The translations under genes were made by a program, and so were the position numbers. From Raillietiella orientalis (Eukaryota): a stretch of 64,000 nt of DNA. The notes beneath the pieces were generated by a model. That model had not been told where the DNA came from and made no database searches. It worked only from the letters and a program-made list of their open reading frames with translations. This document shows positions 1 through 64,000 of the stretch, one piece after another (within the stretch, counting starts at the first letter, position 1; each line of letters opens with the position of its first letter). Where the stretch lies: positions 1 through 64,000 of the forward strand of contig JAYWIR010000087.1 of assembly GCA_036172245.1 (NCBI GenBank), written 5' to 3'.

Positions 1-737
1 ACACGAGCACAATTAACTGATTACTTTGTCAAGCGCACAATACTTTGAGCCGCGGAGCAAGTTCACCGACTCGGCAGGAGAGGAGCAATCTCCCGACTCT
101 AAACAAGGCGACTCCATTGCCGTCTTTGAAAGGCGTAGCGAAAGCAACGCTCCCAGAGAACCCAGCAAAAATCCCGGAGGTTTCCGCAACTACTGTCGCG
201 GAAGTCTCATAAAATCGCGATGGCGAATGGAAGGTAGTGGAGAGGAGGAAAGAAAAATCTATAAAAAAAGCTCCGCAACATCCATCCCTGAGCTCTTCCA
301 AAGGAAAAAGCAGTCGCGGGAATACGAAAACACGCGCGACTTGTGCCTCTTGCAAGGAGAAAGCCAGCGCCCGCAGCCCGTGCAAGTCCGCTTCTGTGGC
401 CGCCGAGAAGACAGTTACGGTGCAATCGAACGGATGCAAGCGCACGTCGATCGTGCGAGCATCACACTCCGCAAAGGAGTCGAATAGCGCCGCTGAACGA
501 CGCGTTACTCGCGCGAAAGCGAGCGCTTGCAGGGCTGAATCCCTGAGGCGTGAAACACTCGTCGCGGAACGGCGAGTGCTCACCCCGGAACCCACAGGTT
601 CTGCTCTTGGGAAGGAGCACTCGATTACGTGCAGCACAGTTGAAGCCGGTCGCGACCACGCCCTCCAGCTCATAGAGCTGCTTAGTGCCTGCTCGCCGGG
701 TGAGGCGAGGACCACGGCCTCGCTTTTCCAGCCGTGA
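1..737 (+). pseudogene. A ORF1, C-terminal low-complexity part
   Basis: ORF 237..737 resembles the ORF1 tail of F1/F2 and ends in TGA overlapping the ORF2 ATG. Confidence 0.65.
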
Positions 738-3700
738 TGATGGCAATCGCGTCTTCTCGTCGTGTTGCCGTGACGTCTTGGAACGTCAACGGGCTCCAAC
801 ACGAGGAGAATACGCGACCAGTGCCTCCCGCTCTGCGCGCCTTGAACTTGACGCTCCCGCAGAAGAATTAACAGAATATCCGAAGAGCAGGCTGCCGAAA
901 TCGAACGGCGCGCGGGCGGAACGTTACTTTATAGGTGCGGCGCTGCACGTAGGTGCGGCTTCGCTTTCCTCGTGCGAGACACTTTGACGATAGCAGTGCG
1001 CAGCAATCGTTTCCACAGGGAAGGCCGAGGGGGACAGCTCGTACTCAAGTGATCCGACTCGATCGACCTTGTCGTAACCAACGTGTACGCACCGAGCGCT
1101 GCTGGACGATGGGCCGAAAGGATTGAGTTCTTTGGTACCTTTCAAAGTCAGTGGCTCACTCGATCTAACCCTACTGTGGCCCATCTCATTGCGGGAAATT
1201 TAAACGTTTACCTGCTTTCCGAGAATAGCTCCCACAAAAAGGAAAAGTTGCTAGCGGAAGGGATGTGCGCGTCCGTGCACGCGTGCAACTTGCTCGCTTG
1301 CGATTCTGTTATGGCAGCAACGCTGGTTTACTTATTCCTTGATCCACACTTCCTCTCTTGAGTGGGTCGGAGAGGTCCCGTGCCGTCCGTGCTTTCAGAC
1401 CACAACAGGCTCTAGTTCGAGTTGCTCCCGCCAGGCAAGGTGCCTCCAAACTGTTTTTGGAGGATGCCGGCTGACTAGCTAAGCCACCCGGAGGCGGCTC
1501 AGCAGCTTCGCCAGTACCTCCTCGGCTTTTCCATAAATGAGCTCGAGGACTGAGACGAACTGAAAAGATCGGTCCGCGAGTTCTGCTGCCGGTTTCCTAT
1601 GCACCAGCTTCCGCGCGGCTTCGGAGAGGGCATAGCCAACAGCAGAGATTTTCTGCAGACCCGCTGCTTTTCCAGGCACGCGGACGTTGGTCGATTATCC
1701 GGGTACAACGCCAAGGCCGAGCGCCAGGTCTGGCAGTCAGGTGCGACAGTTCTGCTCGACGACCAGGACCGGGAATGTTTGGCTCCAGCCGACGTGCGAC
1801 GGATTGTCAGGCGCTATTACTCTTCTCTGTATGCAGAGGCACCGACGGAACGCAGCCTCTCTCGGCATCTTCTGCCGATTAATGCACCTGTTGTAGACGA
1901 GGAGGAACGCGCGCCTCTTGATGAGCCCTTCACGGCAGAGGAAATTTCCTCGGCCATCTCGGAGCTCAAGAGACGAAAAGCGCCAGGCGAAGATGGGCTC
2001 CCCGCGGAATTCTTTCAGTGTTTTGCGGCGGAGCTCATATTCCTGGTGCTCCAACTCTCGTCGCTGATGGGAGACTCGGGCGATGTCCTTGCTTCGTTTC
2101 GCTCTGCGAAGGTGCGTCTACTGCCGAAAGGCGGAGATTTGCGCCAACTGAACAACTGGCGTCCGATCACATTAGTGAATTCGGACGTCAAGTTGTTCTC
2201 GAAACTTTGGGTGGCGCGGATGGGTAGGATCGCGGAATCATTGGTAAGTCCGGAGAAGACGTAAGCTGTTCCTGGGCGGTCCATGGACGCGAATCTCTTG
2301 TTCATACGCAAGGGGGAGCAATTGCAGCATCGTCTGGCGGTGCATCGTCGTGCTGAAACGACGCCTTCGATCTCTCACCGACGGAAGCGCGGGACGCAAA
2401 GAAAGACACCGGGAGCCTTGGCGGTTGCAGTCGAGCTGCACAAAGCTTTCGATTGCGTAAACCAAAAGCTTCTTCTTGAGCTTTTGGAACTTGTGGGTCT
2501 TCCGGCATCCCTGTTGGCGGTCTTGCGCTCCTGCTGGCGCCACGCGATCACATCCATTTTTTTCGGTGACTGTTGTGTGTATGTCGTGCTGGGACGACGA
2601 GGAATTAGGCAGGGTGATAGCTTAAGCCGGCTGCACTTCGGCATCTATTTTGAATTGGTGCTGGAGGCTTACAGGCTGACGCTAGCCAACCTGCCGAGCT
2701 CCTGTCCAGGTACGCCGGCCGTGGCAGCCTATGCCGACGACCTGCTTCTCCTTTTGCCCACGTCCACTTCGCTGACATCGCTTGAAGACTTCTTTGAGTT
2801 GATTCGTCGCGGTGCGGGCGTGAGCGTTAACACGAGTAAGTGTATGATTGTTCCGTTAAGTGAGACGTGGGGCGGCAGTACGACTGGATCGGCCTGGGGA
2901 TTCTGACGGGCAGGTACCTCAGGTACCTTGGCGTGCCGTTGGGCGACTTCTGCATCTCAGCAGCGTGGTCGGACTGCCTTCGGAAAACAGAGCGTGCACT
3001 TGGCCCGTTTTCAGGAGGCGAGTTCGTCTTGCCGAAACGGGCCTGCATCTGGAACACCTTCGTTGCCCTCCTCCTCCGCCCCCTGTTTTTTTGTTTGTCC
3101 ACAGCCCCAGTAAGTCAAAGTCTGGACGCAGCGCCTTCTACGCAAAGCGTTGCGGGGCGCTGCAAGATCCCGTGTCAGACTTAACGACTTAGTGGCGCCG
3201 CGTCAGGATGCAGGCTTGGGCATCCTCGACTTAAACAGCATCGAACTGCAGGTGCAGTTTCGCTTGCTGCGGCTTTGCGCCAAGCTGTGGTGTACGCCGT
3301 GGTGTTTGGCCGCACGCCTTATACTGAGGCGCTGCACGGTAAGCAAGGGACTGCTTTCGTTGCTACTCCACTTTCGGCACACCAGAATAGGGTTTGGTTT
3401 CCTGCCGAGGCAGCTTTCCTCAATGCCGGAAGCCCAAAGCTGGATCTGCAGCCCCCCATGAACATTAATGCATAGCGGCAGGAATCTTTTTCATCGTGGG
3501 CAGCTTCCGAAGGAACGCGCTTGGAAGATCTTCGACGCCTGCGACTTCTCCTCAGTCATCAAATGGACGAAGTTATGCAGGACAAGAAGATGTCGAATCG
3601 TCTGGCCGCCACACCACTCGCCGCAGCGCTGTCTGCATTCAGGGCGAGCAACGACGGTTGCCTACCGGCGAAATGGGAGTTCTCCTGCAAAATTGCGTAA

Positions 3701-4320
3701 GTCAGTAAGCTCCTCGGCAGCTGGACGACAAAGGAGCTGATGCAAGCCGCCACACCTCGGAATCAGGCGAAGAGCCTGCTTCGGTGGAGCGAACATTTAA
3801 GTGAGCCCCCCGGAGAGATAGTCGTTCCCCCCGTTTGCTTGGACAGCTCCGTGTTCCTTCGAATGTGGAAACAAGATGTGCTGCTCTTTTTACATTGTGC
3901 CTTACACTGTAATAGGCAGCAAAGCATCGTTTCCGGGGGAGCTGCTTTGCCAAACTGTTTAAGGTGCGGAGAGATCGAGTCCTTTTTGCACCTTTTGCTG
4001 GACTGCGGTGACCTCCGTGAACTGTTGCGAAGGCTTACTTCGGCCATCATGCCACAAGGAGGCACTGCCATTGATGTGCTGCAGCGCTTCTTCAGCAGAA
4101 TTGGACTTTCGGTTGGCGCGATTGTCGCAACCATGTGTTGTTTTCGCGCCATCGTGAAGGCCCGCTACGCCCTGGAGTTTTAGGCGCAGCGAAGGGAGGC
4201 TCACCTGCTTGCAGCTCAATTCATGGAGAAGGCTTCAAAATGGTCTCATCTTCGTGACAAGGTGAAAGAGGACATTACCGGGATATATCGCCGGTTTACA
4301 GACATTTGAGGACGGCGTAA
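737..4320 (+). pseudogene. A ORF2 (APE-RT-CCHC), disrupted
   Basis: SWNVNG, NVYAP, AGNLN, SDH, KAPGEDG, NWRPITLVN, KAFDCV, RQGD, YADD, CLRCGEIESFLHLLLDC spread over several frames. Confidence 0.9.
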
Positions 4321-4664
4321 TCCGGAGACCCCTGCGACCTCTCGCCCACCCATACCTTGTCCCCTTTCGCTCAGTGAAATTTCCGGTGCATATGCTTTCA
4401 TCTCCGTGTCTTCCAGAGCGATCCCAAGGACCCATATCGCGTCCTCCTTATTTATTGTTTTTATTTTATTTTGGTTTCTTTGTGTATCCCGCCCCCCCCA
4501 ACTCCGTTCTTAAAAGTGTTACTCTGTCCTGCGTGCCAGCAATATTCTTTTTATTCTTGTTCAGTCGTCGGCTGGGAGTTTGGTTCCCAACTAGTTTATT
4601 TTGTATAATTGTTTTTTTTGTTTATGTTATATGGAATAAACCCCCCGGCGTGACCGGGTGAGAA

Positions 4665-6583
4665 ATATCCAGCGCTTGTTCTGCAGAGATCACATAGATC
4701 TCCTGCAGCAGCACAAGGTCGAACGATCCTAGAATGGCGGCCATGTCTCGTCTCCTACCGGCGTCTGTCATGCCGTTTAGGTTCCATACGGCAATGTGCA
4801 GACGACGGAGGGAGGAGATTCGCGGCATTACTGCCGGGGAGATGACGGTGTGGGGGAACCCGCCTCTTCCGAGGCGGGTGAGATGACCATTAGGGTTTCA
4901 GCCTCCTCAGGCACCTTGAATACCTTTCCGGCTTCAACCCCCTCCATCTCCTCCGTGTCTGTGCGTGCTGATCTCTCGTGTGACGATTCCCGGGATTCTC
5001 CCTCGCTCATGGCACTCTCGCAGTCGGAAGTCATCTCCACGACTTCGACCTGGAGAGGGGCTAACCGGGGTTTGCTGGACTTCCTTCCAGCCTTCCGGCG
5101 GGGTGCCGCGGAGATGTAAACTTGGTTTCCGGTCTACGCTACGGGTTCAGTAGTTACCGACTCCTCGGTGAAGGCCGGACGTCTAACTGCCTTTTTGTTA
5201 GCCTTGGAGGGGTCTGGCTGCAATGATGCACCAAGCTTCTCCGCCGCACGCCCGAAGGCGGCGTCATCGATCACGGTCTCGATGACGGACGCTTCTCCCG
5301 GTTGGTTCCCCACGCTGTTGACATTTTCAACAGTGGGTTGTTCATCGGTAGCAGCGATTTCTACCTTGCGGCGTTCGGCGGGAACGCGTGCCACGACGAC
5401 GCTGCATTCTTTTAAATTCTCGCCAACCTGCTGTTTTTTATTTTGGTAGGCTAGCTTTTTTTCAGTTCGTCGTTCTTCCTTCGACTTTTCCTTTTTCGCT
5501 GTGGCTTCTTGCCATTGCGACACCTGACCGCTTTTGTCGATCTTTTCGGCATTCGTTGCCGGGGTATCAACTGCGGCCTGTACCACGGGTGTGGGTGGCA
5601 CAGCTTGAGCGGCAGCCATTTTGTGTAGCAGCCTTCCGCTTCTTTTTAGGTTCCTTGCGGAAACCACGCGCACAGCGAACTGTGGACACACTTTCTTTGT
5701 GTGGCCCATTGTCCCGCATACCTGGCACGGTACGTTGGGGCACCTCCTTTTGAGGTGTCCCGACGTGTTGCAGAAGCCACAGTATTTGGGCTTCCCCACG
5801 TACCAGAGGTCTACGCTTTCTCCGCCGACCACTAGTTTGTGAGGAAGGGTAGAGCCCTCCCGAACGGTTACATGGGCAGCCGTTAGGCCACACTGAACTC
5901 TGGTATAGTCCTCGAAAGGACTAGGCTTGGTCCAAACATCACGGACCGTGCCTTCTTTTCCCAACGCGGCCCATAACTGTTCTTTCCGCATCCGCGCGGT
6001 AACTCCTAAAAGGTGGACCACCATACTGTGGTCCGCCGTAATGGGAAGGCGCCTGCGTGTCCCCATCACCACGGGGGTTTTGAGCAGAGGTTAGTAAGAT
6101 CTGCATGTTAGCAGATCACCTCTACGTACTGCCCTTCGCTACGAATAGTCATAGCGCAGAGCTCATCCTCTTTAACATCGAGAGCGCGCATCCATTTCGA
6201 AAAGTCGCGCGCACTCTCAGAAGAATAGAAATTTTCTACTTGGTAGAATAGTGATGGCTTATACCCCTCTTCCACGTGGCAGATAATTCCGTCGCGGCTG
6301 TAGGCGATGGCGCCAACACGACGGCGTACACGCTCGCGCTGCAGTGGGGACCGGTTGAGTGGGGGCGGACGCCCCCACGTATTTCGCCACTGCTTGCGAC
6401 GATATGGATGCACGCTGGCAGTCCAACTTTTCTAGAAGCAACGTTGTAGCCACCACCTGGCACGAACTGGTGGTCGTGTCAGGCATTGCTGCCTGATCGA
6501 CCACCACCCCACACGAAGCCTACACCTAGGGACGGTTCCCGTCACGAGGAGCACCGAGGAAACACGTCCGCTCTACCCGACGT
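4665..6583 (-). mobile_element. Element B: 5' leader, ORF1 and start of ORF2; cut by A
   Basis: Leader gagcggacgtgttt (reverse complement, about 6560-6573); ORF1 with CGFCNTSGHLKRRC and CQVCGTMGHTKKVC; ORF2 start MPRISSLRRLHIAVWNLNG..LQEIYV at 4828. Confidence 0.9.
4828..6488 (-). pseudogene. B ORF1 (zinc-knuckle protein), disrupted
   Basis: ORFs 5134..6072, 6108..6413 and 4828..5040 together align with ORF1 of C/J. Confidence 0.85.
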
Positions 6584-6697
6584 AAAGCATTCGATTTTCA
6601 CCCGGATTTCGCCGGGGCGTTTATTATAAAACAAACATTTACAAAGACGTGCAGTGGCTGGACCATTGCTCCAGCCACGCACGAAGAAACACAGAGC

Positions 6698-6742
6698 CTG
6701 CCGGGTCACCGGTTGGCAGACCGGTACGGTCCACCGCGGCAG
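6698..6742 (-). other. Conserved 3' UTR nested stem-loop; representative copy
   Basis: Outer stem ctgccg..cggcag and inner accggt-ctgcca-accggt; covarying copies in E, J, L, M and K. Confidence 0.7.
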
Positions 6743-6811
6743 CAGGGGGAAGGGGAAAAACCAAAATACAAAACAAAAAAAAAAGAAAAGTTGGGAGGGT
6801 AAGGGAAGAGA

Positions 6812-9800
6812 TCACAGTTGATGGTGAGGCCGTTGCATCCTTTGCAGGATGCCGGCAAGCTCTTGCTGCATGCTTGGATCCAGGTGGGGCCATCGCGACG
6901 CCCTCCTCAGGAACTGGGAAGCTGGCTGGATGGCAACCTAGTCGCGTTGTCCTCCCGTAGCCTTGCTCCAGGCGACGACGATCCCGCGAATGCAGCACAG
7001 AGCTGCTAACGAGGCCGCTGGCCGAAGGGCGTCGGCAACAAAGAGGGCTTTCAGTGCGTTCCTGGGGTTGCCGCAGGGGATTCCGATGGCCGCGGCAAAG
7101 CGAAACCAAAGGGGCCGAAGGGCAACACAATCCACTAGCAGGTGGGGGAGGGATTCCCGTTACCCACACCTGACGCAATTGGGGTCCACCGCTCCCCAGG
7201 TCCAGTGGTATCGGAGGCCGTTGCAGGGGAGTCATCAGTGCTGCAACAGGAGAGCCGACTCCTGCCATTTTAAGGGGAGGGTGGAAGTGTTCATGAGATC
7301 CGGGGGCCACTTCAGATGTTCAATGGTAACATCGAGCAGCGCGCAAGAGCGCAGAAGTCCATTGGGAGGCGTACTCGGGGACGCAGCGTCTGTTAACTGG
7401 CCCGTCTTCCACTCTCCTATCTTCTTCTCCTTCCCGGAGATTGTAACTGAAACCTCCCACTTCGCTGTACGATCGCTGTCCAGATCTTCCATCAGGGAGG
7501 GCAGCGCAGCAGCGAGGGTGGTTCCTCCTGCCCACACTCTCTTCTTTGGATCCTCAAGGATCTTGCAGAGCATGCAACTTCTGTAACCCCCAAACAGGAA
7601 CCTTCGTTCCTGTTGGGAGCGTTGCATGCCTAAATGTCCCCACGTACGAACGGTTTCCTGCAACCACGAACTACCGTTCAAAGGACGACAGGTGAGCAAT
7701 CCTGGGTTTTTCCGGTACAACGCAGCCACCCTCCGTAGCTGGAGTCCGCATCGGTTGACGCGGCGACGGAGTGCAAGAAACGACGTCAGTCCCGTCTTGA
7801 TGGTGGCTTGCTAAAGAAGGAGACGTGCAGGGACGCACCAACAGGTGCACCACAACTCTGGAACGAGTGCCGACAATCGGAACTGCAGCTGAAGCTCCAG
7901 CCGCTCCAGCGTCAGGAGGCCCAGACCACCGTCCCGATGAGGAGCGCACAAGTCCTTTAAGCGGACTCGGGCCCTCCCGTTGCCCCAAACGGCGATACGG
8001 AGGAGGTCCTTGGTCCGCTTTTTAAGTCTCTCTGTGGGGGAGGCAAACAAAAAGCAGGGGGCGGAGGAGAGAAGCCGCGAACGTGTTCCAAACCGCGGCC
8101 CGTTGAGGCAGGAAAAACCTGCCGCCTCGGAACAAGCCGATCGCCGTCTCTGCTTTTTGGAGGCAGCCGGACCACGCTTCCGCAGGGGAGTAGTTCCCCG
8201 ACGGCACACCAAGGTACTTGAAGTACCTCACCGTGACGATCCATAAACGGACACAGTCCTGCTGCCCTGCCCACTCCGCACCAACTGGCATCACGGACGA
8301 CTTCGCCCTGTTCACCGTAAGTCCGGTTCCCCGATGCAGCAGGTCGAAAAACTTTTCGACCGCCGCAGCCGGGGTGGACATAGGGAGCAGCAGCAGAAGG
8401 TTGTTCGCGTACGCTGAAACCGCTGGCGTACCGGCGCAGTCGTGCGGCAGGTGCGCCAGAGTTCCCCTGTACGCGCTCAGTACCAACTCAAAGTACGTAC
8501 TAAAGAGCAAGGGGTTCAGGCTGTTTCCCTGCCGGATCCCACGCCGCACCGGCACGCCGTGCACGATCTGCCCGCTGAAAGTAACATTGATGAGCGCGTC
8601 GCGCCAGAAGGAGCGCAGATAGGCCACTAATGAGGCCGGGAAGCCCAAGCGTTCCAGAAGCTCTAGAAGGAGATTCTGGTCGACGCAATCGAATGCTTTC
8701 CTCAAATCGATTGCGACCGCAAAGGCTCCCTTCCCCACCCGACCATCCAACCCCTTGCCGGCGCAAGCACCGGAATTCCGGCTGCGCACCAAGCTCCTTT
8801 CATGTTGGAGCTCTAGCCAGGTAGAAGCGTGGAACAGTTTCGCCTCCATGCTTCGCCCGGGAACAGCACATGTCTGTTCCGGGCTGATGAAGGTGTTGGT
8901 AACCCGTCCCAACCTCTCTGCCCAAACCTTAGCCAGCAACTTGGCGTCCGCATTTACTATTGTGATGGGACGCCAGTTGTTCATGCTCCTCAGATCTCCT
9001 CCCTTTGAAAGGAGACGCACCTTTGCCGAACGAAACGAGGCGGGAACGTCACCTGTTTCGCGTATCAGAAAGGTAAGTTGCTGTACCAGGGGGGTAAGCT
9101 CAGCTGCGAAAGTTTAATAATACTCCGCGGGCAGGCCGACCTCCCCTGGAGCCTTGCGCCTCTTGAGCTTTCCGATGGCCGAGAGGATGTCGTCCATCGT
9201 GAAAGGGTCTTCGAGGGTCTTTCTCTGCTCCTCCCCGATCGCTGGAGCGCCTTCCGGAAGCAGAAGTCGTGAGACGTTCCTCTCCGGAGGTGCCCTGGCA
9301 TACAGGGAGGAGTAGTAACTCCGCAGCAGGCCGCGGATTTGGGCAGGTGCCCAGTGCTCCTGGCCCTGATCGCCCAGCAAGCTGGCCGATCCGGACTGCC
9401 AGGCTTGCCTCTCGGCTCCCGCTTTGTATTCCGCCAGCCTGCGGATGTCTGGGGTCCTGGCGTAACGGCGAGCCTGCAGATAGGCTCGTTTGTTACGTAC
9501 TTCGTCCCCAAATCTTGCAGGTAGGCGGTGCAGAGGGAACTGGTCGCAGAACTCCTGGACCGACCGCTTGAAGCGGTCCCAATCCTGAAGTGTCCGCAGC
9601 CTGAAGCTCCGTATGAACGTGCGGAGATGTTACGCCGCGTCCAAGAGCTTTAGCCAGTCCCCTGGGAGACGCCACGCTGACGAGGGGGGACCTCTGTCGC
9701 GCGGATGGATCTCGAGGACTAGCGGGCGATGGGCGGACAGCTCGCACGGTAACTTGCCGCGCCTTCCCACGCGAGGGCACTAGTGCTCGTCAAGGAACAC

Positions 9801-10394
9801 GTGGTCAATGCTGTCTTCCATCCTTGGTGCACTGGTTAACAAATTACGGGTGTGCACCGTCATGCACACCTCGTTCACCAAGTCACGCTCGGGATTCTGC
9901 CCATCTGGTTTCAGGCGAACGTTGAAATCGCCTGCAACCAGATGGGCATTCCGCACGCCTGCTTCGGTCAGCCAGTCTCGGCGGAGGGCAAGGAAAAACT
10001 CTTTCCTCGCCCTCCTGGTCATCAGGTCCGCGCCGCTCGGTGCGTACACGTTTGTGACGATCAGAGCGATCGAGTCGGACCACCTGAGATTCAGCTGGCT
10101 GACACGACCGTGATCGTCGAACCGCACTCCCCGAGCCGCAGCCTCGACGTCTGGCCGAAGCAGGTAAGCCACACGGCAACTTTTCGCTCTCTCACACCTG
10201 TACCATAGCCGCCCTCCGGAGATCCGTTCGATCTCTTGCGCTTGTTCTGCAGAGATCACGTGGATCTCCTGCAGCAGCGCAAGGTCGTAGGACTCCAGAA
10301 GGGCGGCCATGTCTCGTCTCCTGCCGGCGTCTGTCATGCCGTTCACGTTCCAAACGGCGATGCGCAGACGACGGCGGGAGGAGATTCCCGGCAT
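6812..10394 (-). pseudogene. C ORF2 (APE-RT-CCHC), disrupted; YADD changed to YANN
   Basis: ORFs 9780..10394 (APE), 8022..9020 (RT) and 7235..7729. Confidence 0.9.
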
Positions 10395-12070: not shown

Positions 12071-12167
12071 CGCTGCCTGATCGACCACCGAACCACACGA
12101 CGCTTGTACTGGGGGAGACTTCCTGGCACGAGGAGCAGGGAGAAAACACGTCAACCCTGGAGCACGC

Positions 12168-15195: not shown

Positions 15196-15203
15196 AGTGA
15201 AGT

Positions 15204-48205: not shown

Positions 48206-48212
48206 ATTTCAA

Positions 48213-51200: not shown

Positions 51201-54117
51201 AGGTCTGGCAGTCCGGAGCAACATGCCTGTTGGACGACAAGGGCCAGGAATGTTCGGCCCCAGCCGAAGTACGCCGCATTGTGAGACGCTACTACTCCTC
51301 GCTGTACGCGGAATTCCCGACAGAGGATATTCTTTCTGAGATACTCCTGTCTCAGGATGCTCGTGTTGTCGGTGAGGAGGAACGCGAACGTCTCAACGAG
51401 CCCTTCACGGCGGATGAATTTTCGACTGCCATCGCTGGGCTGAAGAGACGGAAGGCGCCAGGCGAGAATGGGCTCCCTGCAGAGTTTTATCAGTGCTTTG
51501 AAGTGAAACTCATTCCCTTGATGTTGAGACTCGCGACGTTGATGAGTGAATCCGCGAATGTCCCGGATTCCTTCCGCTCAGCGAAGGTGCGTCTCCTGCC
51601 GAAAGGCGGAGACTTGCGTCAACTTAACAACTGGCGTCCGATCACATTGGTGAACTCGGACGTCAAGTGGTATTCCCAGCTGTGGTTCGCGCGGTTAGGA
51701 AGTATCGCGGAATCTTTGGTGAGTCCGGAACAAACCTACGCGGTTCCGGGACGATCCTTGATGGCGAACATCCTTTTCGTGCGTACATGGATGCAGCTGC
51801 AGGAAGTTGTGGCGCAGCAAAGCCAGGCTGCTGCGAAAGTCACTGCCGCACGGAAGAAGAACAGGCGCCGACGGCAGAAGGGAACGCCAGGCGTCTTGGC
51901 GGTCGCGGTCGATCTCCACAAGTCGTTCGACTGCGTAAACCAGAAGCTGCTTTTGGAGCTTATGGAACGCTTTGGGTTCCTTGCGCAACTCGTGCTGTAT
52001 TTGCGCGCGTGCTGGCGCCACGCGCTATCCTGCATCACTTTCAGCGGCTGCCGCGTGTATGGTATTCCCGTTCGTAGGGGCATCCGACAGGGAGACAGCT
52101 TAAACCCGTTGCTCTTCAGCATCTTCTTTAGGTTGGTGCTAAGAGCACACAGGCTGACGCTGTCTCACTTGTCAAGCTGCTGCCCGGGAACGCCAGCCGT
52201 GGCCGCTTACGCTGATGACCTCCTTCTTCTGCTCCCCATGTCCACCCCGGCGTCCAGTGTCGAGAATTTTTTTGACCTGATTCGTCGAAGAGCGGGCGTG
52301 AGCGTGAACAGAGAGAAGAGCGTGGTCGTTCCTGTGGGTACGTCGTGGGAGGGGCAGTCCGACTGGATCCGCATGGGGATCCCCACGGGCGGGTACTTTT
52401 AGTACCTTGGCGTTCTTTTGGGCGCTTTAAGCGCACCCTAAGCGTGGGCGGACTGTCTTCAGCAAGTAGAGTTGGCCATCAGTCCGTTCTTTAACGGCAA
52501 GTTTACCTTGCAGGAACAAGCGACTATTGGAAGCACCTTTGTGGCCCCCCTCCTCCGTCCCCTTTTTTTTGTTCTGAACCCCCCCTATGCAGCGAAACAG
52601 CGGGCTAAACGCCTGCTCAGGAACGCTCTCTGGGGTCTGGCGAGTTCCAGGATCCGCCTTAAAGATTTGTTAGCTCCCCGTTTGGATGCTGGTTTGGGTA
52701 TCCTGACAATGGAGCGAATCGGACTGCAGGTGCAGTTCCGACTGCTGGCACTGTGTGCCCAGCTATGGACATCCCCCTGTGTGTGCCAGCCCGCGTTCTC
52801 CTGCGGAGATGCGCCGGCAGCGGAGGATTTCTCTCGCTTCTGCCGGGCACTCAATAAAGGAAGCGGGGTTTCGGGTTTCCATTGCGGCAGTTGACCGCAC
52901 TTCTGGAAGCACACTCGTGGATCTCCTGCCGCCCAATGAACTTTGAAGCTTGGCTGCAGGAGTCTGTTGAATCCTGGGCGGCGTTCCCAGGAATACGCCT
53001 TGAAGATCTTCGCCCCCTGCGCCAATTTTTTCCACGATCCTTGGAAGAAGTACTGCAGGACGAGGTGAAGTTTACTAGCCTGGTTGGCACGCCTCTTGCC
53101 GCAGCGCTGTTTGCCCTCAGGGCAACAAACGACAGTTACCAACCGGCGAGGTGGGAGGTTTCCTGCACGATAGCGGGAAAAACCAAACTTCTTGACGCCT
53201 GGTAGACGAGTGAGTTGGCGGACACCGCCACTCCTCGTGTTACTGCAAAAGGACTCCTCCGGTAAGCAGAATTACTTGCTGTCACCTCCGCAGAACTTAT
53301 AGTCCCTCCACAGTGCATGGACAGCTCGCTGCTTCTTCTTGCTTGGAAACAAGCCGTGCTGCTTTTCGTTCACTGGGGTTTTCAGTGCAACGAGCGTTGG
53401 CATCGGGACTCCGGTGGACTTGCTTCTCCGAACTGCGTTCGGTGCGGATCGACGGAGTCGATTCCGCACCTACATTTGGACTGCGGTGTCCTACAAGGAC
53501 TGTGGCGTAGGCTGACAACAGCACTAATGCATCCCGTGGACACCGCAAGAGACTTGCTACGACGATTATTCACGCCGAGCGGGCTGTCACTAAGCTCAAG
53601 GATTGCAACCAGCGGTTGTATACGCGGGATAGTTTGCGTCCGCCAGGCGTTGCTAATCAACGGACAGCACCAAGAGGTAATCAGCAAAGCATCCGTCTAC
53701 ATGGGAGCATCCGCTAGATGGTGTCATTTCATAGAGGAGACAAGAAGGAATCTCGCCGAAATACACCGCCGGTTTACACACGCTCAGCAGCTGCCAACCC
53801 GGTGATGATTGCCCTACCCTCCATTTACTGATTTTGTAATTTCTTTTAACACCCGCGTCCCCATAGGCTCCGGAACATTTCAGGTTTTCATCGTTTAAAT
53901 CCCCGTGAGTACGGAACCTAACCAAAACCCGTTACCCTTCCCTCGAGTTTTTGATTCTTGTTTGTTTCCCTTCATTCCTCCCATGCTGCGAGCGGTTTGT
54001 TTACGAGGTCTGGGTGCCGGTTATTTTTCTATGTTCCCTGTCGTTCTGTTGGTTGAGGACATTGTCCCTGACCAGGTTATTATTATTAATAAACGCTTCG
54101 GCGTGTCCGGGTGATAA
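48213..54117 (+). mobile_element. Element F2: full-length LINE, head-to-tail with F1
   Basis: Flanked by atttcaa (48206-48212 and 54118-54124); ORF1 48291-50213, ORF2 50213-53805. Confidence 0.93.
50213..53805 (+). pseudogene. F2 ORF2; contains the longest open stretch in the window (647 aa, APE through RT YADD)
   Basis: ORF 50459..52402 with NVYAP, LDHVF, NWRPITLVN, KSFDCV, RQGD and YADD; stops elsewhere. Confidence 0.92.
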
Positions 54118-55935
54118 ATTTCAATCTCCGCCTGCCAACAGGTGAGCCTGAAACACAAGAGAACGCGATGATCGAGTTGTGCGCCGCCATGCGTGCGCAC
54201 AACTTGTTCGCGGTTGAGAGCGGAATGGCGCGTAGCATCGACCACGTTTTCCTCGACACTGACCTGTGTTCACGGGTCGGCAAATGGGGGAAGATTGCCT
54301 CGACGCTTTCGGACCATTCCGGGCTAATTTTCGAGATGCGGCCTCACGACAAGGGACCGCCATCCCGAATACCTGAGAAGTGTCACGTTCGGGAATCTCC
54401 AGGACTGGAACCTTTTTAAGGAATCGGTCCGCGTTTTCTGCGAGCAGTTCCCCCTGGATCGCTGCCCTTGGATTTGGCGAGGGTACTTGCAACCATCGAG
54501 CCTATTTACAGGACCTTCGTTACGAGAGAAAATCTAATGTCTGTCGCTTAGCCGAGTACAGCGCTGGGGCCGAACGCCAAGGCTGGCAATCCGAGTCGGC
54601 CAGCTTGCTGAACGACCAGGGCCGGGAATTTTCGTCCCCGGCGTCTGTACGGCATCTCGTGCAAAGATTTTATTCAGGCCTCTACGCCAGGACGCCTCCG
54701 GACCAAGATGCCTCTTGGCGCTTGTTCCCAAATGGTGCCCCGGCAATTGGGCAAGAGGAGTCAATGAGCCTCGACGAGCCTTTCGCTACCGGCGAAATTC
54801 TCGCTGGTATCAAAAGGCTCAAGAGGCGTGTTGCTTTGGAGGGGGACGGCTTGCCTGCGGAGTTCTTTCAGTGGTTCGCGGATGAGCTTGCCCCCCTGCT
54901 GCTCGTGTTGACAAGGCTGATCTGAAACAAAGGCGATGTTCCCGCCTCGTTTATGTCAGCCAGAGTGACGCTCCTTCCGAATGGTGGAGACCTCGGGGAT
55001 TTAAATAACTGGCGTCCCATCACCATCGTGAATACTGACGCCAAGATGCTAGCAGGGTTATGGGCTTCGCGTTTGGGGCAGGTGGCCGAGTCCATAATTA
55101 GCCCGGAGCAGACCTATGCTGTTCCCGGGCAAAGTATGGACGCCAACCTCTTTTTCGCAAGCACGTGAATGCACCTGCAAAGGAGAGAAAAAAAGGGAAA
55201 GGGAAAATCGGCAACCCAACATTGGGGCCGCTAGCGGGGCTGGAGATTGACCCCGGGGCGGGGAAGGGAGCCCTAGCGATCGCAGTCGATCTCTGTAAGG
55301 CGTTCGACTGTGAAGATCAGGAACTTCTCTTAAAGTTCCTGGGTCGCATGGGCTTCCCACCCTCTTTGATGTCCTACCTGCACTCTTGCGGGCAAAATGC
55401 GATGATTACCATCTCTTTCAGCGGTCACAAGGTGTATGGCGTGCCGGTGCGGCGGGGCAGAAGGCAAGGAGATCGCTTCAGCCTACTGCTCTTTAGCACC
55501 TACTTTGAGTTGGTGCTGAGAGCGTACAGGCTGACTTTTGCCCCCTTGCCGAGCTCGTGCCCTGGTTCGCCCGCCGTAAGAATTTATGCCGACGGTCTTC
55601 TGCTCCCGTTACCTATGTCCACCGCGGCGGAGGCAATCAGAGATTTCTTCGACATGCTCAATTGCAGCACCGGACTGCAGGTGAAGCTGACGAAGTCGTC
55701 GGTGGTGCCAGTTGGTGCAACGTGGGCAGGGCAGCAGGACTTGGTCCGTTTGGGGATCCCCACAGCGAGGTGCATCAAGTACCTTGGTGTGCCGTTTGGG
55801 GAATTCTTCCCTGTGGAAGCGTGGTCGAGGTTCCTTTAAAAAGTCGAGACGGCGATCGTCCCGTTCCTGGAAGGCAAGTTTAACTTGTCGGAACGGGCCG
55901 CGGTTTGGAACGCCTTGGCGGCCCCTATCCTCCGC

Positions 55936-58712
55936 AACGAACGCGCGTGCAAATACGCGCGTTCCTTGCAAGCCCCTTTGTTAAATCCCCAAGACAGACG
56001 TTGCACAGGGAACTGTTCGCAGAACTCCCGGACCGAGTCCTTAAATAGGTCCCATTCCGCGAGATTCTGGAGGGTGACGCCTCGCAGGAATTCGCGAAGA
56101 AGTTCTTTCGCTCCTGACAGGAGCGTTCAGTTCCCTGGCATACGCCAATCCTTGGATGGCGGTCCCTTGTCGCGCGGACGCATCTCGAATAATAACCAAG
56201 AATGGTCCAACAGCGTCCAGCCAAGTGTCCCTCGTTTTCCGACCCATGTGCACAGGTCTCCGTCGAGAAAGACGTGGTCCACGCTGCTGTCCATCCTCTG
56301 TATTTCTGTCAACAAGTTGCGCGCACGCATGGCGGCGCACAACTCGTTGATCGCGTTCCCCTGTGCTCCGGGCTGATCTGAGAGCAGGCGGACGTTGAAA
56401 TCCTCTGCTATCAGATGCGCCTTTCGCACGTTTGCGTTCACCAGCCATTCGCGCTTCAAGGGTTCAAGTAACGCGTTGCGCTGCTGGTACCCTTTTTACA
56501 GCTTGGAGCGTACACATTGGTGACGATGAGTTCGATCGAATCCGACCATCTGAGAATCAGTTGGCCGATCCGTTCGTCGTCCCCAGAGCGCACGCCGTTC
56601 ACGGCCGCGTTAATAGCTGAGTTTAGAAAGAAAGCGACTCCACAAGTGATGCGGGCGCCGCATCGCAAGTACAGCCGCCCTCCCGCTATCGTTTCAATCT
56701 CCTGAGCGTCTTTTGCGGTAATCACGTGGATCTCCAGCAAATGCTCCAGGTCGGAATCTCACAAGGTGGCGGCTGTATCTCGTCTGTTTCCGTCGTCGCG
56801 CAGCCCGTTGGAATTACAACTGGCCACGCGGATCCGACGGCGACAGGCGAGTCCAGGTGTTATTCATGGGAAATTGGCGGTGGTGCTCCCGCCACCTTTT
56901 GGGGCGGGTCGCTGGACGGGGTTTGCGTCTTGCCCACCAACTCTCCATCCTTCTTACGTGCCGACGTCTCCGGCTGCCCGTGCGAAGGGAATGTTGCTCG
57001 TACCTGTTGGCCCACATCCATTCATGCGGGTGGTTCAGGTTTGGCGGTCTCAGGGGGCATTGCTGACCCCTGGTTACCCTCCTCCATTGGAGTCGCCTCG
57101 TCGTCGGCTTCCGCACGTGAGTGATGCTCGAGTTGGGCTCCCACGCTGCCATCCTCTGGTTCCTCCTCCATTGGATCCCCCTCGCGCGGAGGCGGAATGC
57201 ACCTATGGGGTTTCTAGGATTTTCGCCGCGCTTTCCTTGGTGGTGCTTCCGCAGAGAAGGATGCACTTCATGCCTTTCGGTCCGACTCACCTGCGGAGGC
57301 CATTTTAGCCGCTTCCGGCCTACGCAACACCTTTCGCGGAGGGTTCTCGCGTTCGGTAAGCGTTGCCGCAAGCTTCTCGGCGGCCTTCTCGGAGGCTGCG
57401 TCCTTGGTTTCGGCGAGTTTGTCGTCCAGCTGATCCTCTTCGCAAGCAGGGGGTGAGTTTTCGCGCGCATTGGTCGCGGCGGAAAAAACGATAGAAGCCG
57501 TATCACCTCCGGGGGTGTCGGTGGGAACGTCAATGCGCTCCAGCGTAACCGTGCTTTTTGGGAGAGTTTTAACGCGCGACACGGATTGAGCTTTTGTTCC
57601 GGCCACCGCCTCTTCTCCTTTCTTCGGGACATGCTTGTCCTTATTCTCTTTTTTGGCTTCAATTAGCTTCCAGCTCTGTTATCCCTCTGCGGTTCCGGGA
57701 AGATTTTACTCCGATGCCGCGGTTCGATCTAGGGTTATTGGCAGCTTTTCTCGCACAGCTTCACGGTTTTTAAAATTTTTCTTTCCCCGCGCGTTTCCCT
57801 TGCGCCTTTTTCGCGGACGACAAAATTGGGGTGGGGCGTTTAGAGCACACGCGACGGACGTGTCCCTTCTCCCCGCACAAGTAGCATACGATGTTTGGGC
57901 ACCTCTTTCGGATGTGACCGAACGTATCGCAGTAGCCGCAATACCGTGGCTTGCCCGAATACCAGAGGTCTACCGGTTCTCCCGCGACCTCAAGTTTGTG
58001 GGGTAGTTTCGCATCGTTTTTTGGGGTTACACGTGCTCCGGCGAGGCCCCCGAAGTGGCGTCCGTAGCCCTCAAAGATTGTGGGCTTCGGCAACAGCGCG
58101 TGTACGTCGCCGTACTTACTTAATTCTTTTTTGACGGCAGTGCGCGTCATGCGCATAGATGTTCCTGTCAAGTGGACCACTACCGAGTGTTCCATTGACA
58201 CCGGGTAGATCTTACGGCCGTCAATGATCAGCTGGGTATTTATAAGGCGATCGGCTATGCTGATGCTCTTGCACACCACCTCAACCCGCTGCGCCCCGGC
58301 TGAGCACGCATAGACCTTCCAGATCTTCCCCACGGACATTAGCATTTTGAAGCGCTCTGCTGAAAGCGCGCGCCGTGTTTTCCTCAAAGGGCCTACCTTG
58401 TCTACAAGCGAAGGCTTGTATTCACTATCCCGATAGGCGGCTTCCTCGGCCATGGCCTCCGCACTGGGAGCGGCGACCAATTCACTCCAAGTCTTCACCG
58501 GCTGCGAAGACGTTCCAGGGACTATTACCCCCATAGCTGTAGGTCATGTGGGAGGACTTGCCTCCCCCACAACTACATCCATCGCGGTGTCCTCTGACAC
58601 GGATGCTATCGGACACCTTAGACCCACACATTACACCTGACTACACTAAAAACTCCGTTTGCTTCCCAGACAAGGGCTGGCGGAGCGACCAAAAAACACG
58701 TCCACCCACACC
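55936..58712 (-). mobile_element. Element N: leader, ORF1 and APE; 3'-truncated
   Basis: gtggacgtgttttt leader (reverse complement, about 58691-58705); CGYCDTFGHIRKRC and CYLCGEKGHVRRVC; TAACA junction at 56858-56862. Confidence 0.87.
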
Positions 58713-58725
58713 GACTTTCGGCGAT

Positions 58726-60826
58726 GCCACCTGGTTCCGCGGGACGTTTATTAAAAACATTTCAGCAGTGAATACAGAACGTGGTTCAAGGCCCCACTGA
58801 CAGCCACGCAATACTGAAACTGCCGGGACACCGGGACGCAGCTCGGTGTGGCTCTCCTCGGCAGTGGGGGGGGATGGGTGAGAAAACAAAAAAAAAATAA
58901 AAGAGAAAAACAGACCACAAAAAAAGTTTGGAGGGCCGGGAAGGGATCACAGAAAACTGCTGGGAGGGCCTGTCCTTTGCAGGATGCCTTCTAGTTCCAT
59001 TTTCAGTTTTCCAAGATAAGGCCATTTGGTAGCTCTCTGCAGGAAGCGAGAAGCATACTCGATGACATCCCTCACGATGCAGTCTTCATCTTCGGCATCA
59101 TTCCAGGCCGCCACGATAACACGAATGCAGAAAAGTGCTGCAAGGGCTGCGGCTGGGATGAGGGCGTCCCGCACAAAGACAAGACTGAAGACACATCCAA
59201 CATTGCCACCATTTGGTATACCTAGTCCCGATTTAGGACGATCCCAAAAAATGCGGACGGCAGAGCATTTAACTAATCGGTGGGGGAGCGGCTCCTGCTC
59301 CGCATATCTGGCACACGCAAGATTAACTCTTCCCCGCGTATAGTGGAAGCGACGCGCGTTGAAGGGTAGACCCTAATGTAGCCACAGAAGCGCCGATCCT
59401 TGCCACTTCAGGGGAAGAATCCTGGATTTAACTAGAACCGGAGACCACTTCAGGTCATGTAATCGAATGCCGAGCAGCTCGCCCCATCTTCTTAATTCAC
59501 GCGAATGGAGACTAGGGGTCGTTGCATCTGTCAACTCTCCCATGGTCCAGCCGCTCATCATCTTCTCTCTGCCTGCGATACGGCAGCAGACTTGTCACCT
59601 TGGCTTACGACTTTCGTGAACTGCCCTTTGGAGGAAGGGCATCGCCGTAACAAGGGGTGTGCCTTCCGCCCACGTGCAACTCGGTGGAAATACAAGAATT
59701 TCACGGAGAGTTCGGCGGGCGCAAAAGCCGACTCGCAGGCAGTTCATCCGGTCTTCGCACCTCTAGTTCTGCTTGGCCCAGGTGCCAGCAGTCTCTTCCA
59801 GCCAAGCGGAGGAGCTGGCGGTGCCACAAACCATCCAGTCGTTCTCCTTTACCAGGGTTGCCATGCGGCCGAGCAGTAGACCGCATCTTCGAATCTTCAG
59901 GTGAGGGCACAGAAGAAACGATGCGAGTCCTTCGCAGCGGGACACAAGCCTGGCCAGGAGGTGGGCCGGAATGCACCAAGCGGTGCTTTACATCTTCGCT
60001 GCGATGGCGAGGGTTCGCCATTGCATCTGGATTTTCACGCGCTTCAGCGTCAAGATACTGAGACCGCCGTCCCGACAAGGAGCGCACAAGTCCTTCAAAG
60101 GGACTCGGGGCCTCCCCTTGCCCCAAAAAGCTATGCGGAAGAGGTCTTTTGTCCGCTTTTTAGATCCCACGGCGGCGGAAAGCAAGGGACGGAGGATGGG
60201 GGCCGCGAAGGCGTTCCAAACCGCGGCCCGTTCTGGCAAGTGAAACTTGCCTTCCAGGAACGGGTCGATCGCCGTCTCGACTTTTTGGAGGCAGCTGGAA
60301 CACGCTTCCGCAGGGGAGAAGTCCCCTAACGGCACACCGAGGTACTTGATGCACCTCACCGTGGGGATCCCCAGACGGACCCATTCCTGCTGCTCTGCTC
60401 ACGCCGCACCAACTGGCATCATGGACGACTTCGCCCTGTTCACCGTAAGTCCGGTTCCCGGATTCAGCAGGTCGAAGAACTTCTCGACCGCCGAAGCCTG
60501 GGAAGACATAAGAATCGGCAGCAGAAGGTCGTCCGCGAGCGCTGAGACCGCAGGCGTTGCGGCGCATCCATGCGGCAGGTGCGCCAGAGTTTTCCTATAC
60601 GCTCTCAGTACCAACTCAATGTAGGTACTGAAGTGCAAGAGGCTCAGGCTTTCTTATTGCAGGATTCCACGTCGCACCGGCACGCCGTGAACAGTCTGCC
60701 GCTGAAAGTAAGATTGATTTGCGAATGGCGCCTGCTGGAGCGCAAATAGTCCTTTAATGAGGGCGGGAAGCCCAAGCGTTCCAAAAGCTCCAGCAAGAGA
60801 TTCTCGTCGACGCAATCGAATGCTTT
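58726..60826 (-). mobile_element. Element K: 3' half from KAFD to the terminal hairpin
   Basis: KAFDCVD, LADD, GKFHLPERAAVW; 3' end aataaacgtcccgcggaaccaggtgg (reverse complement). Confidence 0.85.
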
Positions 60827-61279
60827 CCATCTCCGCGCCACCCCGACGGAAGGCTGGAAGGAAGTCCAGCAAACCCCGGAAAGCTTCTACCCATACCGAA
60901 GGCGTGGAGTCTACTGCGGACAGCGAGGGTGCCATGAGCTTGGGAGAATCACTGGAATCGTCACCCGAGAGAGCAACACTCACAGACACGGAGGAGATGG
61001 AGAGGCTTGAAGCCTGAAAGGTAACCAAGGTGCCTGAGGAGGCCGAAACCCTAATGGTCATCTCACCCGCCTCGGAAGAGGCTAGTTCCATTACGCCGTC
61101 ATCTTCCCGGCAATAATGCCGGGAATCTCCTGCCTCCGTCGTCTGCACATTGCCGTATGGAACGTAAACGGCATGACAGGAGCCGGCAGGAGACGAGACA
61201 TGGCCGCCATTCCAGGATGGTTCGACCTTGCGCCGCTGCAGGAGATCCATGTGATCTCTGCAGAACAAGCGCAGGAGAT
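60827..61279 (+). mobile_element. Element B': B-family fragment starting exactly after the KAFD target of K; cut by A'
   Basis: Homologous to 4665-5118; preceded by aatcgaatgcttt (60814-60826); TAATG overlap at 61114-61118. Confidence 0.85.
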
Positions 61280-63498
61280 TTCTCACCCGGTCACGCCGGG
61301 GCGTGTATTCCATATAACATAAACAAAAAAAACAATTATACAAAATAAACCAGTTGGGAACCAAACTCTCAGCCGACGACTGAACAAGAATGAAAAGAAT
61401 ATTGATGGCACGCAGGCCAGAGTAACAGTTTTGAGAACGGTGTGGGGGGGGCGGGGAACACAAAGAAACCAAAGTAAAATAAAAACAATGAATAAGGAGG
61501 ACGGGGTAAGGGTCTTTAAGATCGCTCTGGAAGACACGAAGATAAAAGCATTGGCACCGGAAATTTTACCAAGCGGAAGGGGACAGGATATAGGTGGGCG
61601 AGAGGTTGAAGGGGTCTCCGGATTACGCCGTTCTCAAAGGTCTGTAAACCGGCGATGCATGCCGGTGATGTCCTCATTCACCTTGTCACGAAGATGAGAC
61701 CACCTTGAAGCCTTCTCCATGGATTGAGCTGCAAGCAGGTGAGCCTCCCTTCGCTGCGCCTAAAACTCCAGGGCGTAGCGGGCCTTGACGATGGCGCGAA
61801 CGCAACACATGGTTGCCACAATCGCGCCAACCGAAAGTACATTCCTGCTCAAGAAGCGCCGCAGCACATCAATGGCTGTGCCTCCTTGTGGCATGATGGC
61901 CGAAGTGAGCCTTCGCCACAGTTCCCGGAGGTCACCGTAGTCCAGCAAAAGGTGCGGAAAAGACTCGATCTCTCCGCACCTTAAACAGTTTGGCAGAGCA
62001 GCGCTCCCGGAAACGATGCTTCGCTGCCTATTACAGTGTAATGCACAATGTAAAAAGAGCAGCACATCTTGTTTCCACTTTAAGGGGAACACGGAGCTGT
62101 CCAAACAAACGGGGGGAACCACTATCTCTCAGGGGGGCACACTTAAATATTCGCTCCACCGAAGTATACCCTTCGCCCGATTCGGAGGAGCGGCGGCTTA
62201 CACCAGCTCCTTTGTCGTCCAACTGCCGAGGAGCTTACTGACTGCCGCCATTTTGCAGGAGAACTCCCATTCCGCCGGTAGACAACCGTGGTTGCTTGCA
62301 CTGAGGGCAGACAGCGCTGCGGCGAGTATTGTGGCGGGCAGACGATCCGACAACTTCTTGTCCTGCATGACTTCGTCCATTCGATGACTGAGGAGAAGTC
62401 GCAGGCGCCGAAGTTCTTCCGGGCGCGTTCCTTTGGAAGCTGCCTACGATGAAAAACATTCCTGCCGCCATGCATTAATGTTCATAAGGCGGCAGGAGAT
62501 CCAGCTTTGGGCTCCCAGTTGTGACGACAGCTGCCTCAGCGGGAAGCCAAACCCTATTCTGGTGTGCCGAAAGTGGGGTAGCAACGACAGCAGTCCCTCG
62601 CTTCCCGTGCAGCGCCTCAGTATAAGGCGTGCGGGTAAGTACCACGGCGTTCACTACTGTTTGGCACAGAGGCGCAGTATCCGAAACTGGACCTGCAGTT
62701 CGATGCTGTTTAAGTCGAGGATGCCCAAGCCTGCATCCTGACGCGCCGCCACCAAGTCTTTAAGTCTTACGCGGGATCTTGCAGCGCCCCGCAACGCTTT
62801 GCGTAAAAGGCGCTGCGCCTAGACTTTGACTTCCTGGGGAGTGGACAAACAAAATACAGGGGGCGGAAGAGGGGGGCAACGTAGGTGTTCCAGATGCAGA
62901 CCCGTTCCGGCAAGACGAACTCGCCTTCTGAAAACGGGCCAAGTGCACGCTCTGCCTTCCGAAGGCAGTCCGACCACTCTTCTGTGATGCAGAAGTCGCC
63001 CAACGGCACGCCAAGGTACCTGAGGTACCTGCCCGTGGAAATGCCTAGGTCGATCTAGTCGAACTGCCCTTCCCACGTCGCACCTACCGGAACAACCATA
63101 CACTTACTCCTGTTAACGCTCACGCCCGCACCGAGACGAATCAACTCAAAGTCTTCAAGCGATGTTGCCGGGGTGGACATGGGCAACAGGAGAAGCAGGT
63201 CGTTGGCATAGGCTGCCACGGCCGGCGTACCTGGACAGGATCTCGGCAGGTTGGCTAGCGTCAGCCTGTAAGCCTCCAGCACCAATTCAAAATAGATGCT
63301 GAAGAGCAGCGGGCTTCAGCTATCACCCTGCCCAATTCCTCGTCGTACCGGCACTCCATACACGCGACAGCCACTGAAAACAATGGATGTAATCGCATAG
63401 CGCCAGCAGGAGCGCAAGTTCGCCAACATGGATGTCGGGAGATTCAGACGTTCCAAAAGCTCAAGAAGAAGCTTTTGGTTCACGCAATCGAAAGCTTT
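61280..63498 (-). mobile_element. Element A': A-family 3' half, cut at its own KAFD motif
   Basis: Homologous to about 2440-4664; same junction with the B-family APE as A. Confidence 0.88.
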
Positions 63499-64000
63499 GC
63501 GCCCTTGCGGTCGCAATTAACTTGCGGAAAGCATTCGATTGCGTCCACTAGAATCTTCTTCTGGTGCTTCTGGAACGCTTGGGCTTCCTGGCCTCTTTAG
63601 TGGCCTATCTGCGCTCCTGCTGCCGCGACGCGCTCATCAACGTTACTTTCAGCGGGCAGTCCGTGTACGGCGTGCCGTTTCGGCGTGGGATACGGCAAAG
63701 AGACAGCCTGAGCCCCTTGCTCTTCAGTACGTACTTTGAGTTGGTACTGAGAGCGTACAGGGGATCTCTGGCGCACCTGCCGCACGATTGTGCCAGTACG
63801 CCGGCCGTTTCAGCGTACGCGGACGACATTCTGCTGCTGCTCCCTATGTCCACCCCGGCTGCGGCGGTCGAGGAGTTCTTCGACCTGCTGCATCGGGGAA
63901 CCGGACTTACGGGGAACAGGGTGAAGTCGTCCGTGATGCCAGTTGGTGCGGCGTGGGCAGGGCAGCAGGACTGGGTCCGTTTGGGGATCCCCACAGAGAG
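63499..64000 (+). mobile_element. Element Z: C/L-like RT fragment antisense to A', running out of the window
   Basis: AVAINLRKAFDCV..RQRDSLSP..LAHLPHDC..YADD. Confidence 0.8.

Follow-up and report, generated by a model that had tools for sequence, protein, structure and literature searches.

A LINE-only cluster probably built by L1-like lineages inserting at short specific sequences within one another's ORF2

Composition of the cluster

Contig JAYWIR010000087.1 of the Raillietiella orientalis assembly (GCA_036172245.1) carries a dense cluster of long interspersed nuclear elements (LINEs), nested within one another. We analyzed its positions 1 to 64,000 on the forward strand, hereafter the window (64 kb; 53-62% GC), and in particular the junctions between elements, many of which fall at short coding motifs in the second open reading frame (ORF2) of other copies. 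Using a near-complete copy (23090-29143) as a ruler in tblastn, nearly all of 647-64000 was found to be LINE coding sequence. When the window was compared with itself, many alignments ended at common coordinates, and nesting was up to four deep, an R-type fragment lying in Z, Z in X, and X in D2.

Pfam matches to apurinic/apyrimidinic-type endonuclease (APE), reverse transcriptase (RT), zf-RVT and CCHC-knuckle domains were obtained on many open reading frames of both strands. The order PF03372 (APE) then PF00078 (RT) was found within the same elements, in the Pfam results as in the tblastn map; PF13966 (zf-RVT) matched at 21698-22336 and 28054-28911, and PF00098 (CCHC) at 29798-31075 and 57770-58543. 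Among solved structures, the nearest to the window RT was human L1 ORF2p (E 6e-37, as against about 1e-11 for R2 proteins, this being a structure comparison and not a phylogeny), and the APE was nearest to L1-EN and exonuclease III (E about 1e-6 for L1-EN). The elements are LINEs of the L1 superfamily: the APE is N-terminal to the RT, the RT is L1-like, the C-terminus is zinc-binding and ORF1 has CCHC knuckles.

The nearest proteins among 5.8 billion were only 24-27% identical and mostly unnamed, with no named algal, Tx1 or Zepp protein among the matches, and a protein-cluster atlas returned only generic RT and APE clusters, devoid of useful taxa. Rfam, tRNA and tandem-repeat scans of the window gave nothing relevant, and no other gene was found there. 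The first 646 nucleotides (nt) have no likeness to anything else in the window and contain stops in all three forward frames; they may be a diverged 5' part of the adjacent element E1, or something else. A run search listed one related sequencing run, X1 (0.09 of sampled words shared), and no RNA run. From X1 we independently assembled contigs of a related organism, 90-95% identical to the window.

Element termini

The ends of the elements are recognizable. All ten 3' ends found carry the block AATAAAC-N5-GGCG-N3-4-CCrGGT(GA), followed by 2-5 A, and eight complete 5' ends carry GGACGTGTTTT a few bases in. True termini can thus be told apart from breakpoints, and junctions do fall at true element ends. 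Eight of the ten 3' ends adjoin one of five ORF2 sites, named here after their codons (KAFD, EQAQEI, GDFN, RNLQYWD and GKQL); the two others, those of D1 and D2, adjoin the 5' region of another element. A 3'-terminal stem-loop was also considered: among four predicted pairs no compensatory change was seen, so that the sequence block is supported and the structure is not. Scanning metagenomes for the conserved 3' block yielded 119 loci; as none was LINE-like by tblastn or blastn, we regard them all as chance matches.

Each element has an AATAAA about 20 nt short of its end (e.g. 29102-29132 and 48176-48205), beyond which come only the 2-5 A. This motif looks like a polyadenylation signal, in which case reverse transcription would begin at the very start of the tail.

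Insertions at the KAFD codons of RT

The most used site is KAFD, in RT motif A. Five insertions of R-type or S4-type elements occupy a single nucleotide position in four target RT copies, all five antisense to the target, with an 11-14-nt target-site duplication (TSD). The clearest case is R (23560..29132, + strand), a full-length LINE with ORF1, APE, RT and zf-RVT, which splits a C-type element and for which both junctions are present. The upstream C-type RT half (29133..29652, - strand), ending in KAFD, adjoins the 3' end of R, and the downstream half (21340..23559, - strand), running from KAFD (23546-23556) to the 3' untranslated region (UTR), adjoins its 5' end; the TSD, TCGAAyGCyTTG(yG), is read at 23546-23559 and 29133-29146. 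The C-type RT fragment T1 (12640..14149, + strand), with an uninterrupted KAFD at 12928-12939, provides a paralogous empty site for this insertion.

Two more insertions share one KAFD copy (6584..6594, + strand; TCGAATGCTTT on the - strand), which carries both the 3' junction of S5 and the 5' junction of S4. S5 (6595..12164, - strand) is a full-length R-type LINE. On its 5' side lies T0down (12165..12634, + strand), again the downstream half, beyond KAFD, of a C-type RT, with 97% identity to the corresponding flank of R. S4 (4664..6580, - strand) belongs to an R-like lineage about 75-79% identical to R, and its 5' end is complete, with GGACGTGTTTC at 6559-6569. As read from the sequence, the shared KAFD copy is the mark of a re-insertion into a regenerated TSD.

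The last two are 5'-truncated and antisense. X (60827..61280, + strand), of the S4 lineage, has its 5' junction at the KAFD (60816-60826) of D2 (58725..60826, - strand; RT to 3' end), and an R-type fragment (63502..64000, + strand), 90% identical to R and running past the window end, has its own at the KAFD (63488-63498) of Z. A few bases of likeness (microhomology) are present at both joins. Over the roughly 800 nt that follow KAFD, D2 itself is 81-84% identical to R-type elements, and toward the 3' end, the 3' UTR included, it is FL-like. It may represent a recombinant, or else a lineage of intermediate type.

Elsewhere in the window at least 11 KAFD copies stand uninterrupted (10 in one site survey, plus that of T-b), among them that of E1 at 2442-2453. 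A candidate break at 2438 within E1 was rejected, E1 being simply uninterrupted where its relative Z is broken. By our own arithmetic, with about 16 such sites among 128,000 strand positions, the probability that a random insertion meets a correctly oriented KAFD site is about 1.25e-4, so that four further matches after the first are far beyond chance. Moreover, the flanks of the KAFD junctions come from different lineages (C-type, D2, Z-type and the S4 5' end), and therefore they are not copies of one event. The two truncated copies were also compared. The S4/X lineage is 76.5-78.7% identical to R in the sole comparable region, a distance equal there to that of the window's R2 element; since comparison with R2 leads us to expect about 83% between S4/X and R in the RT, as against the 90% of the 63502 fragment, X and this fragment are probably separate insertions. 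The support for KAFD as the R-type target is strong and well beyond chance. The KAFD site of R-type elements themselves is identical to their target, so nothing shows selectivity against rival elements, and the proposed inactivation of competitors is not supported.

A contig from X1, about 95% identical to Z (63047-63499), appears to continue through KAFD into upstream RT. It is possibly a Z-type copy with an empty KAFD, which would be a presence/absence difference for the R-type insertion. We had considered the X1 join 51668/63499 as a rearrangement; this was rejected in favor of a reading as the relative's Z-type copy, uninterrupted at KAFD.

Insertions at the GDFN and EQAQEI codons of APE

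A second site, in the GDFN codons of APE, is occupied in the sense orientation by two T-type elements in tandem. FL2 (5' part 40605..42299, + strand; 5'-truncated in ORF1) is cut after GGAGATTTCAA, the GDFN codons lying at 42288-42299. There follow T-a (42300..48205, + strand), an 8-nt TSD copy ATTTCAAT (48206..48213, + strand) and T-b (48214..54117, + strand), after which FL2 resumes at ATTTCAATCTCC (54118..55935, + strand) with the rest of APE and part of RT. T-a and T-b are both full-length and 90% identical to each other. The arrangement, with a TSD copy between the two, is as predicted by two successive integrations into one site. In FL1 the GDFN site is uninterrupted (31767-31782) and gives the empty state. 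A contig of the relative has a T 3' end, then ATTTCAAT, then CTCCGCCTGCT, which is FL sequence downstream of GDFN; it may represent the orthologous locus. GDFN is a good T-type site, supported at a moderate level.

The third site, EQAQEI, also lies in APE and is entered antisense by Z-type elements. E1 (647..4663, + strand; placed by tblastn map and junction from the beginning of APE in ORF2 through to the 3' end) and Z (61281..63498, - strand; KAFD to 3' end) end at the identical bond, beside the AATMTCC... codons for EQAQEI of S4 (4664-4678) and X (61266-61280), respectively. The exact site is carried only by the S4/X lineage, in which both copies are occupied (2/2), and variants with 2-4 mismatches in R, S5, R2, FL2 and FL3 are all unoccupied. 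EQAQEI is a likely Z-type site, with moderate support from these alignments.

As the region is wholly repetitive, one may ask whether such junctions are assembly mis-joins at k-mers common to repeat families. We consider this extremely improbable: contigs of the relative, assembled independently, bridge the X|Z junction and carry the junction between the T 3' end and GDFN, and mis-joins would neither create TSDs nor put conserved termini at the joins.

Sites occupied once

Three more sites were found, each with a single event. R2 (32114..37631, - strand), a full-length LINE 74% identical to R, lies antisense at RNLQYWD of FL1, between the FL1 5' part (29815..32113, + strand; ORF1 with CCHC, APE) and the 3' part (37632..40605, + strand; RT to 3' UTR, the last ~48 nt missing relative to D2). 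It is flanked by a perfect 17-nt TSD, TGGAGATTCCGGAGCGT, at 32097-32113 and 37632-37648, and the site is empty in both FL2 (54385-54402) and FL3, two paralogous copies. At GKQL only the 3' junction is present: I (20397..21336, - strand), a 5'-truncated Z/T-like element, adjoins H antisense, H being cut after its GKQL codons (20378-20396). At NADAK only a 5' junction is present, that of H (18318..20396, + strand; FL-like 5' part), whose complete 5' end (GGACGTGTTTT at 18320) adjoins the NADAK codons of an R-type RT fragment (17838..18317, - strand; about 83% identical to R). Motif searches and junction sequences place junctions at all six motifs named in the initial annotation (KAFD five times, EQAQEI and GDFN twice, RNLQYWD, GKQL and NADAK once each).

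AATCTCC, or its complement GGAGATT, occurs near the nick in the Z, T and R2 targets (flanks 4664, 61280, 54118 and 32113). It could be a shared recognition core or a coincidence.

Conservation of the sites and relationships between lineages

Each site was ranked by its invariant columns among all 15-nt windows of an ORF2 alignment of five lineages. The percentiles obtained were 0.998 for NADAK, 0.905 for KAFD, 0.82 for GDFN, 0.72 for both EQAQEI and GKQL, and 0.59 for RNLQxWD. The proposal that the targets are hard-to-mutate codon blocks therefore fits the first three sites and not the last three (0.59-0.72). The T, Z and R2 targets are variants found in one other lineage only, unlike the inserter's own sequence, and EQAQEI, GKQL and RNLQxWD look like lineage-specific "host" sequences rather than conserved blocks.

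A neighbor-joining tree, built from pairwise identities over the RT part after KAFD (without support values), grouped R, S5 and the 63502 fragment, with D2 and R2 nearby; FL1 with FL2; D1; the C-type; and the pair Z, E1 with the pair T-a, T-b. Close relatives hence use different sites: R is at KAFD and R2 at RNLQYWD, Z is at EQAQEI and T at GDFN. That different lineages have different targets, as first proposed, is well supported for R-type elements at KAFD and moderately for T at GDFN and Z at EQAQEI, the other three being single events.

FL-type elements and rearranged junctions

The commonest group in the window, FL/D/H/K (FL1-3, D1, D2, H and K), shows no common site, and the idea that each family has its own target is not supported. 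D1 (15203..17817, - strand; RT to 3' end) is followed at its 3' end by a 19-nt spacer (15184-15202) and the 5' region of K (14224..15183, - strand), the ORF1 part of an FL-like element. Likewise, the 3' end of D2 adjoins, across an unrelated spacer (58707-58724), the 5' region of FL3 (55996..58710, - strand; 5' motif at 58693-58703, ORF1 and APE, with RNLQxWD and GDFN uninterrupted). Neither spacer has another copy in the window at 3 mismatches or fewer. Shorter stretches of them show a weak likeness, near chance (estimated p of about 0.05), to neighboring parts of the RT "VNRAKS" region in antisense.

At least seven other junctions look like truncations or rearrangements and lie at no shared motif: 12634/12640, 14149-14224, 17817/17838, about 21336, 29652-29815, 40605 and 55935-55996. 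Together with the FL-type elements and the 3' ends of D1 and D2, they leave unconfirmed the initial statement that every resolvable terminus abuts a conserved motif or the 3' end of another element. The FL2(+)/FL3(-) junction (55931-55996), where FL2 stops as its RT core ends, contains a perfect 10-nt inverted repeat, GAACGCGCGT / ACGCGCGTTC, separated by a 6-nt loop; rather than an insertion, this suggests a rearrangement of the hairpin type. A CAC microhomology is present at the join 12634/12640.

These features raise the question of whether the motif junctions too are products of recombination, template switching or palindrome resolution at the most conserved stretches of diverged LINE copies, and not insertions. 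In that case one would point to this inverted repeat and microhomology, to the conversion tracts seen between copies, and to 63498/63502, which joins two RTs inverted at nearly the same ORF2 coordinate. Such a process, however, would join homologous ORF2 positions, and the KAFD, GDFN, EQAQEI and RNLQYWD junctions each have one true element terminus instead; TSDs flank R, R2 and the T pair, and three of the target sites are outside the most conserved stretches. We find this explanation very improbable for the motif junctions.

Interpretation

Taken together, the data make it probable that this LINE-only cluster was built through target-primed reverse transcription (TPRT) of related L1-like lineages that recognize short specific sequences inside ORF2 of other LINE copies. 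The R type, S4/X sublineage included, integrates at a single position of the RT motif-A codons, on their antisense strand; a first nick would be made before TCGAATGCTTT and a second some 11-14 nt beyond it, whence the TSD. T-type elements enter the FL1/FL2 lineage in sense, at the GDFN codons of APE; Z-type elements lie antisense in the S4/X lineage, at its EQAQEI codons, and R2 antisense in FL1 at RNLQYWD. The 3' ends would accordingly be followed by TCGAATGCTTT for R-type, ATTTCAATCTCC for T-type and AATCTCCTGCGC for Z-type elements. Because the TSD restores the site, later copies settle beside earlier ones and form head-to-tail arrays such as S5/S4 and T-a/T-b, and 5'-truncated copies are joined through a few bases of microhomology. 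The specificity presumably resides in element-encoded proteins, in APE or another part of ORF2. The cluster would grow by feeding on itself, and gene conversion and rearrangement would then scramble it.

Several observations weigh against this explanation. The analysis covered one 64-kb window, which is almost all LINE, so any insertion in it lands in a LINE and, more often than not, in ORF2. No copy has an intact ORF2 (the longest open reading frame, at 50396-52402 in T-b, is of 668 aa), and the activity of these copies is thus historical. The FL-type elements have 5' junctions in at least four different places and no common 3' target, and seven or more junctions look rearranged. RNLQYWD, GKQL and NADAK are single events, and T-a and T-b are at one locus only.

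To these must be added two cases in which repeated events may not be independent. First, S5 (6584-12634) and R (23090-29143), compared in inverted orientation, are 96% identical overall and 88.8-100% identical per 250-nt window, and they share 467 nt of 5'-flanking C-type RT, 93-97% identical. With such a shared flank and patchy identity, their 5' junctions are not independent, and the patchiness looks like gene conversion between cluster members, or a copied flank. Second, E1 and Z are 90.1% identical and S4 and X 88.0%, so that the two parts of the composites S4|E1 and X|Z have diverged to much the same extent. One Z insertion could thus have been copied along with its host, and the independence of the two cannot be proven.

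These same facts are what would be expected if integration were merely regional, for example tethered to cluster chromatin, and not sequence-specific, the repeated junctions being chance events copied by segmental duplication, composite retrotransposition or gene conversion. The patchy identity (89-100%) shows that conversion is at work, the FL-type elements have no fixed site, and three of the six sites are single events. Yet the four KAFD targets belong to different lineages with different flanks, and the 3' flanks of S5 and R begin to differ precisely where the element ends, in keeping with separate integrations. A copied composite is also hard to reconcile with X being a truncated insertion at the KAFD of D2 and S4 a full-length one at another KAFD. 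Finally, the TSD copy between tandem elements is a prediction of re-insertion. On balance, we consider regional integration unlikely.

Beyond target-specific insertion itself, a broader picture can be drawn, on which we remain evenly divided. It is that of a young L1-like radiation in one genome, retargeted repeatedly, in which at least three lineages, perhaps five or six, would each recognize a different 8-17-nt site in the APE or RT codons of their sisters. KAFD would be the site common to all lineages and the others variants of a single "host" lineage; the elements would be parasites upon parasites, with the cluster as their sole habitat.

Comparison with known systems and significance

The rDNA elements R1 and R2 insert by nucleotide-precise TPRT into conserved multicopy rDNA, and their copies are without a long poly(A) tail. 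The endonuclease of the rDNA element R2 is restriction-like, and R1 is of a different clade. The window elements resemble them in the precise TPRT into a conserved multicopy sequence and in having copies without a long poly(A) tail; they differ in that the target is not a host gene but other retrotransposons. A LINE whose target is a transposon is also known, Tx1L inserting in the Tx1D transposon.

A close parallel in targeting is found in the Tx1 clade. Like its members, as they are presented in two papers (PMC4640811, PMC3747384), the window elements encode an APE, are related to L1 and integrate sequence-specifically into multicopy sequences, a transposon included. Transposons are listed among the targets of site-specific LINEs, with the Tx1 and R1 clades named (PMC4640811). 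In the window, repeated sequence-specific targets are accompanied by TSDs (11-14 nt for R-type, 8 nt for T, 17 nt for R2). Tx1-clade LINEs such as Keno, Mutsu and others target small RNA genes, whereas the window targets are codons of sister LINEs, entered in both orientations, and close relatives in this single cluster use at least 3-5 different sites.

As to cluster architecture, the likeness is to Zepp of Chlorella and Coccomyxa and to ZeppL, which form nested, self-targeting LINE clusters in the passages relied on here (PMC8226300, PMC3446292, PMC9940879); here too, the clusters are made of LINEs only, in nested and tandem copies. Those descriptions, as far as they extend, deal with one family per genome, ZeppL-1_cRei of Chlamydomonas being called "the only ZeppL family" in its genome (PMC9940879), and give no nucleotide-precise coding-motif target, in contrast to the several lineages and different sites of the window. 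The tails differ as well: that of Zepp is given as (A)n in one tabulation (PMC3747384, Table 3), whereas the window elements end with 2-5 A after the CCrGGTGA block at all ten ends. A full-text literature search, whose scope did not extend to supplements or the original Zepp descriptions, returned no account of LINEs targeting ORF2 motifs of sister LINEs.

Should the specificities hold across the genome, they would give a mechanism by which clusters made of LINEs alone, the Zepp-type ones proposed as algal centromeres for example, can expand and leave genes unharmed. They would also supply a natural set of APE-type LINEs, closely related yet each precise for a different target, from which to learn how L1-like elements choose their targets, a choice of interest for targeted gene insertion. 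With several lineages found at the same exact nucleotide of the enzyme-coding sequence of another copy, the window suggests how a cluster of repeats may feed on itself as it grows. On the same genome-wide condition, these elements would be transposons that have the coding sequence of their relatives as their niche.

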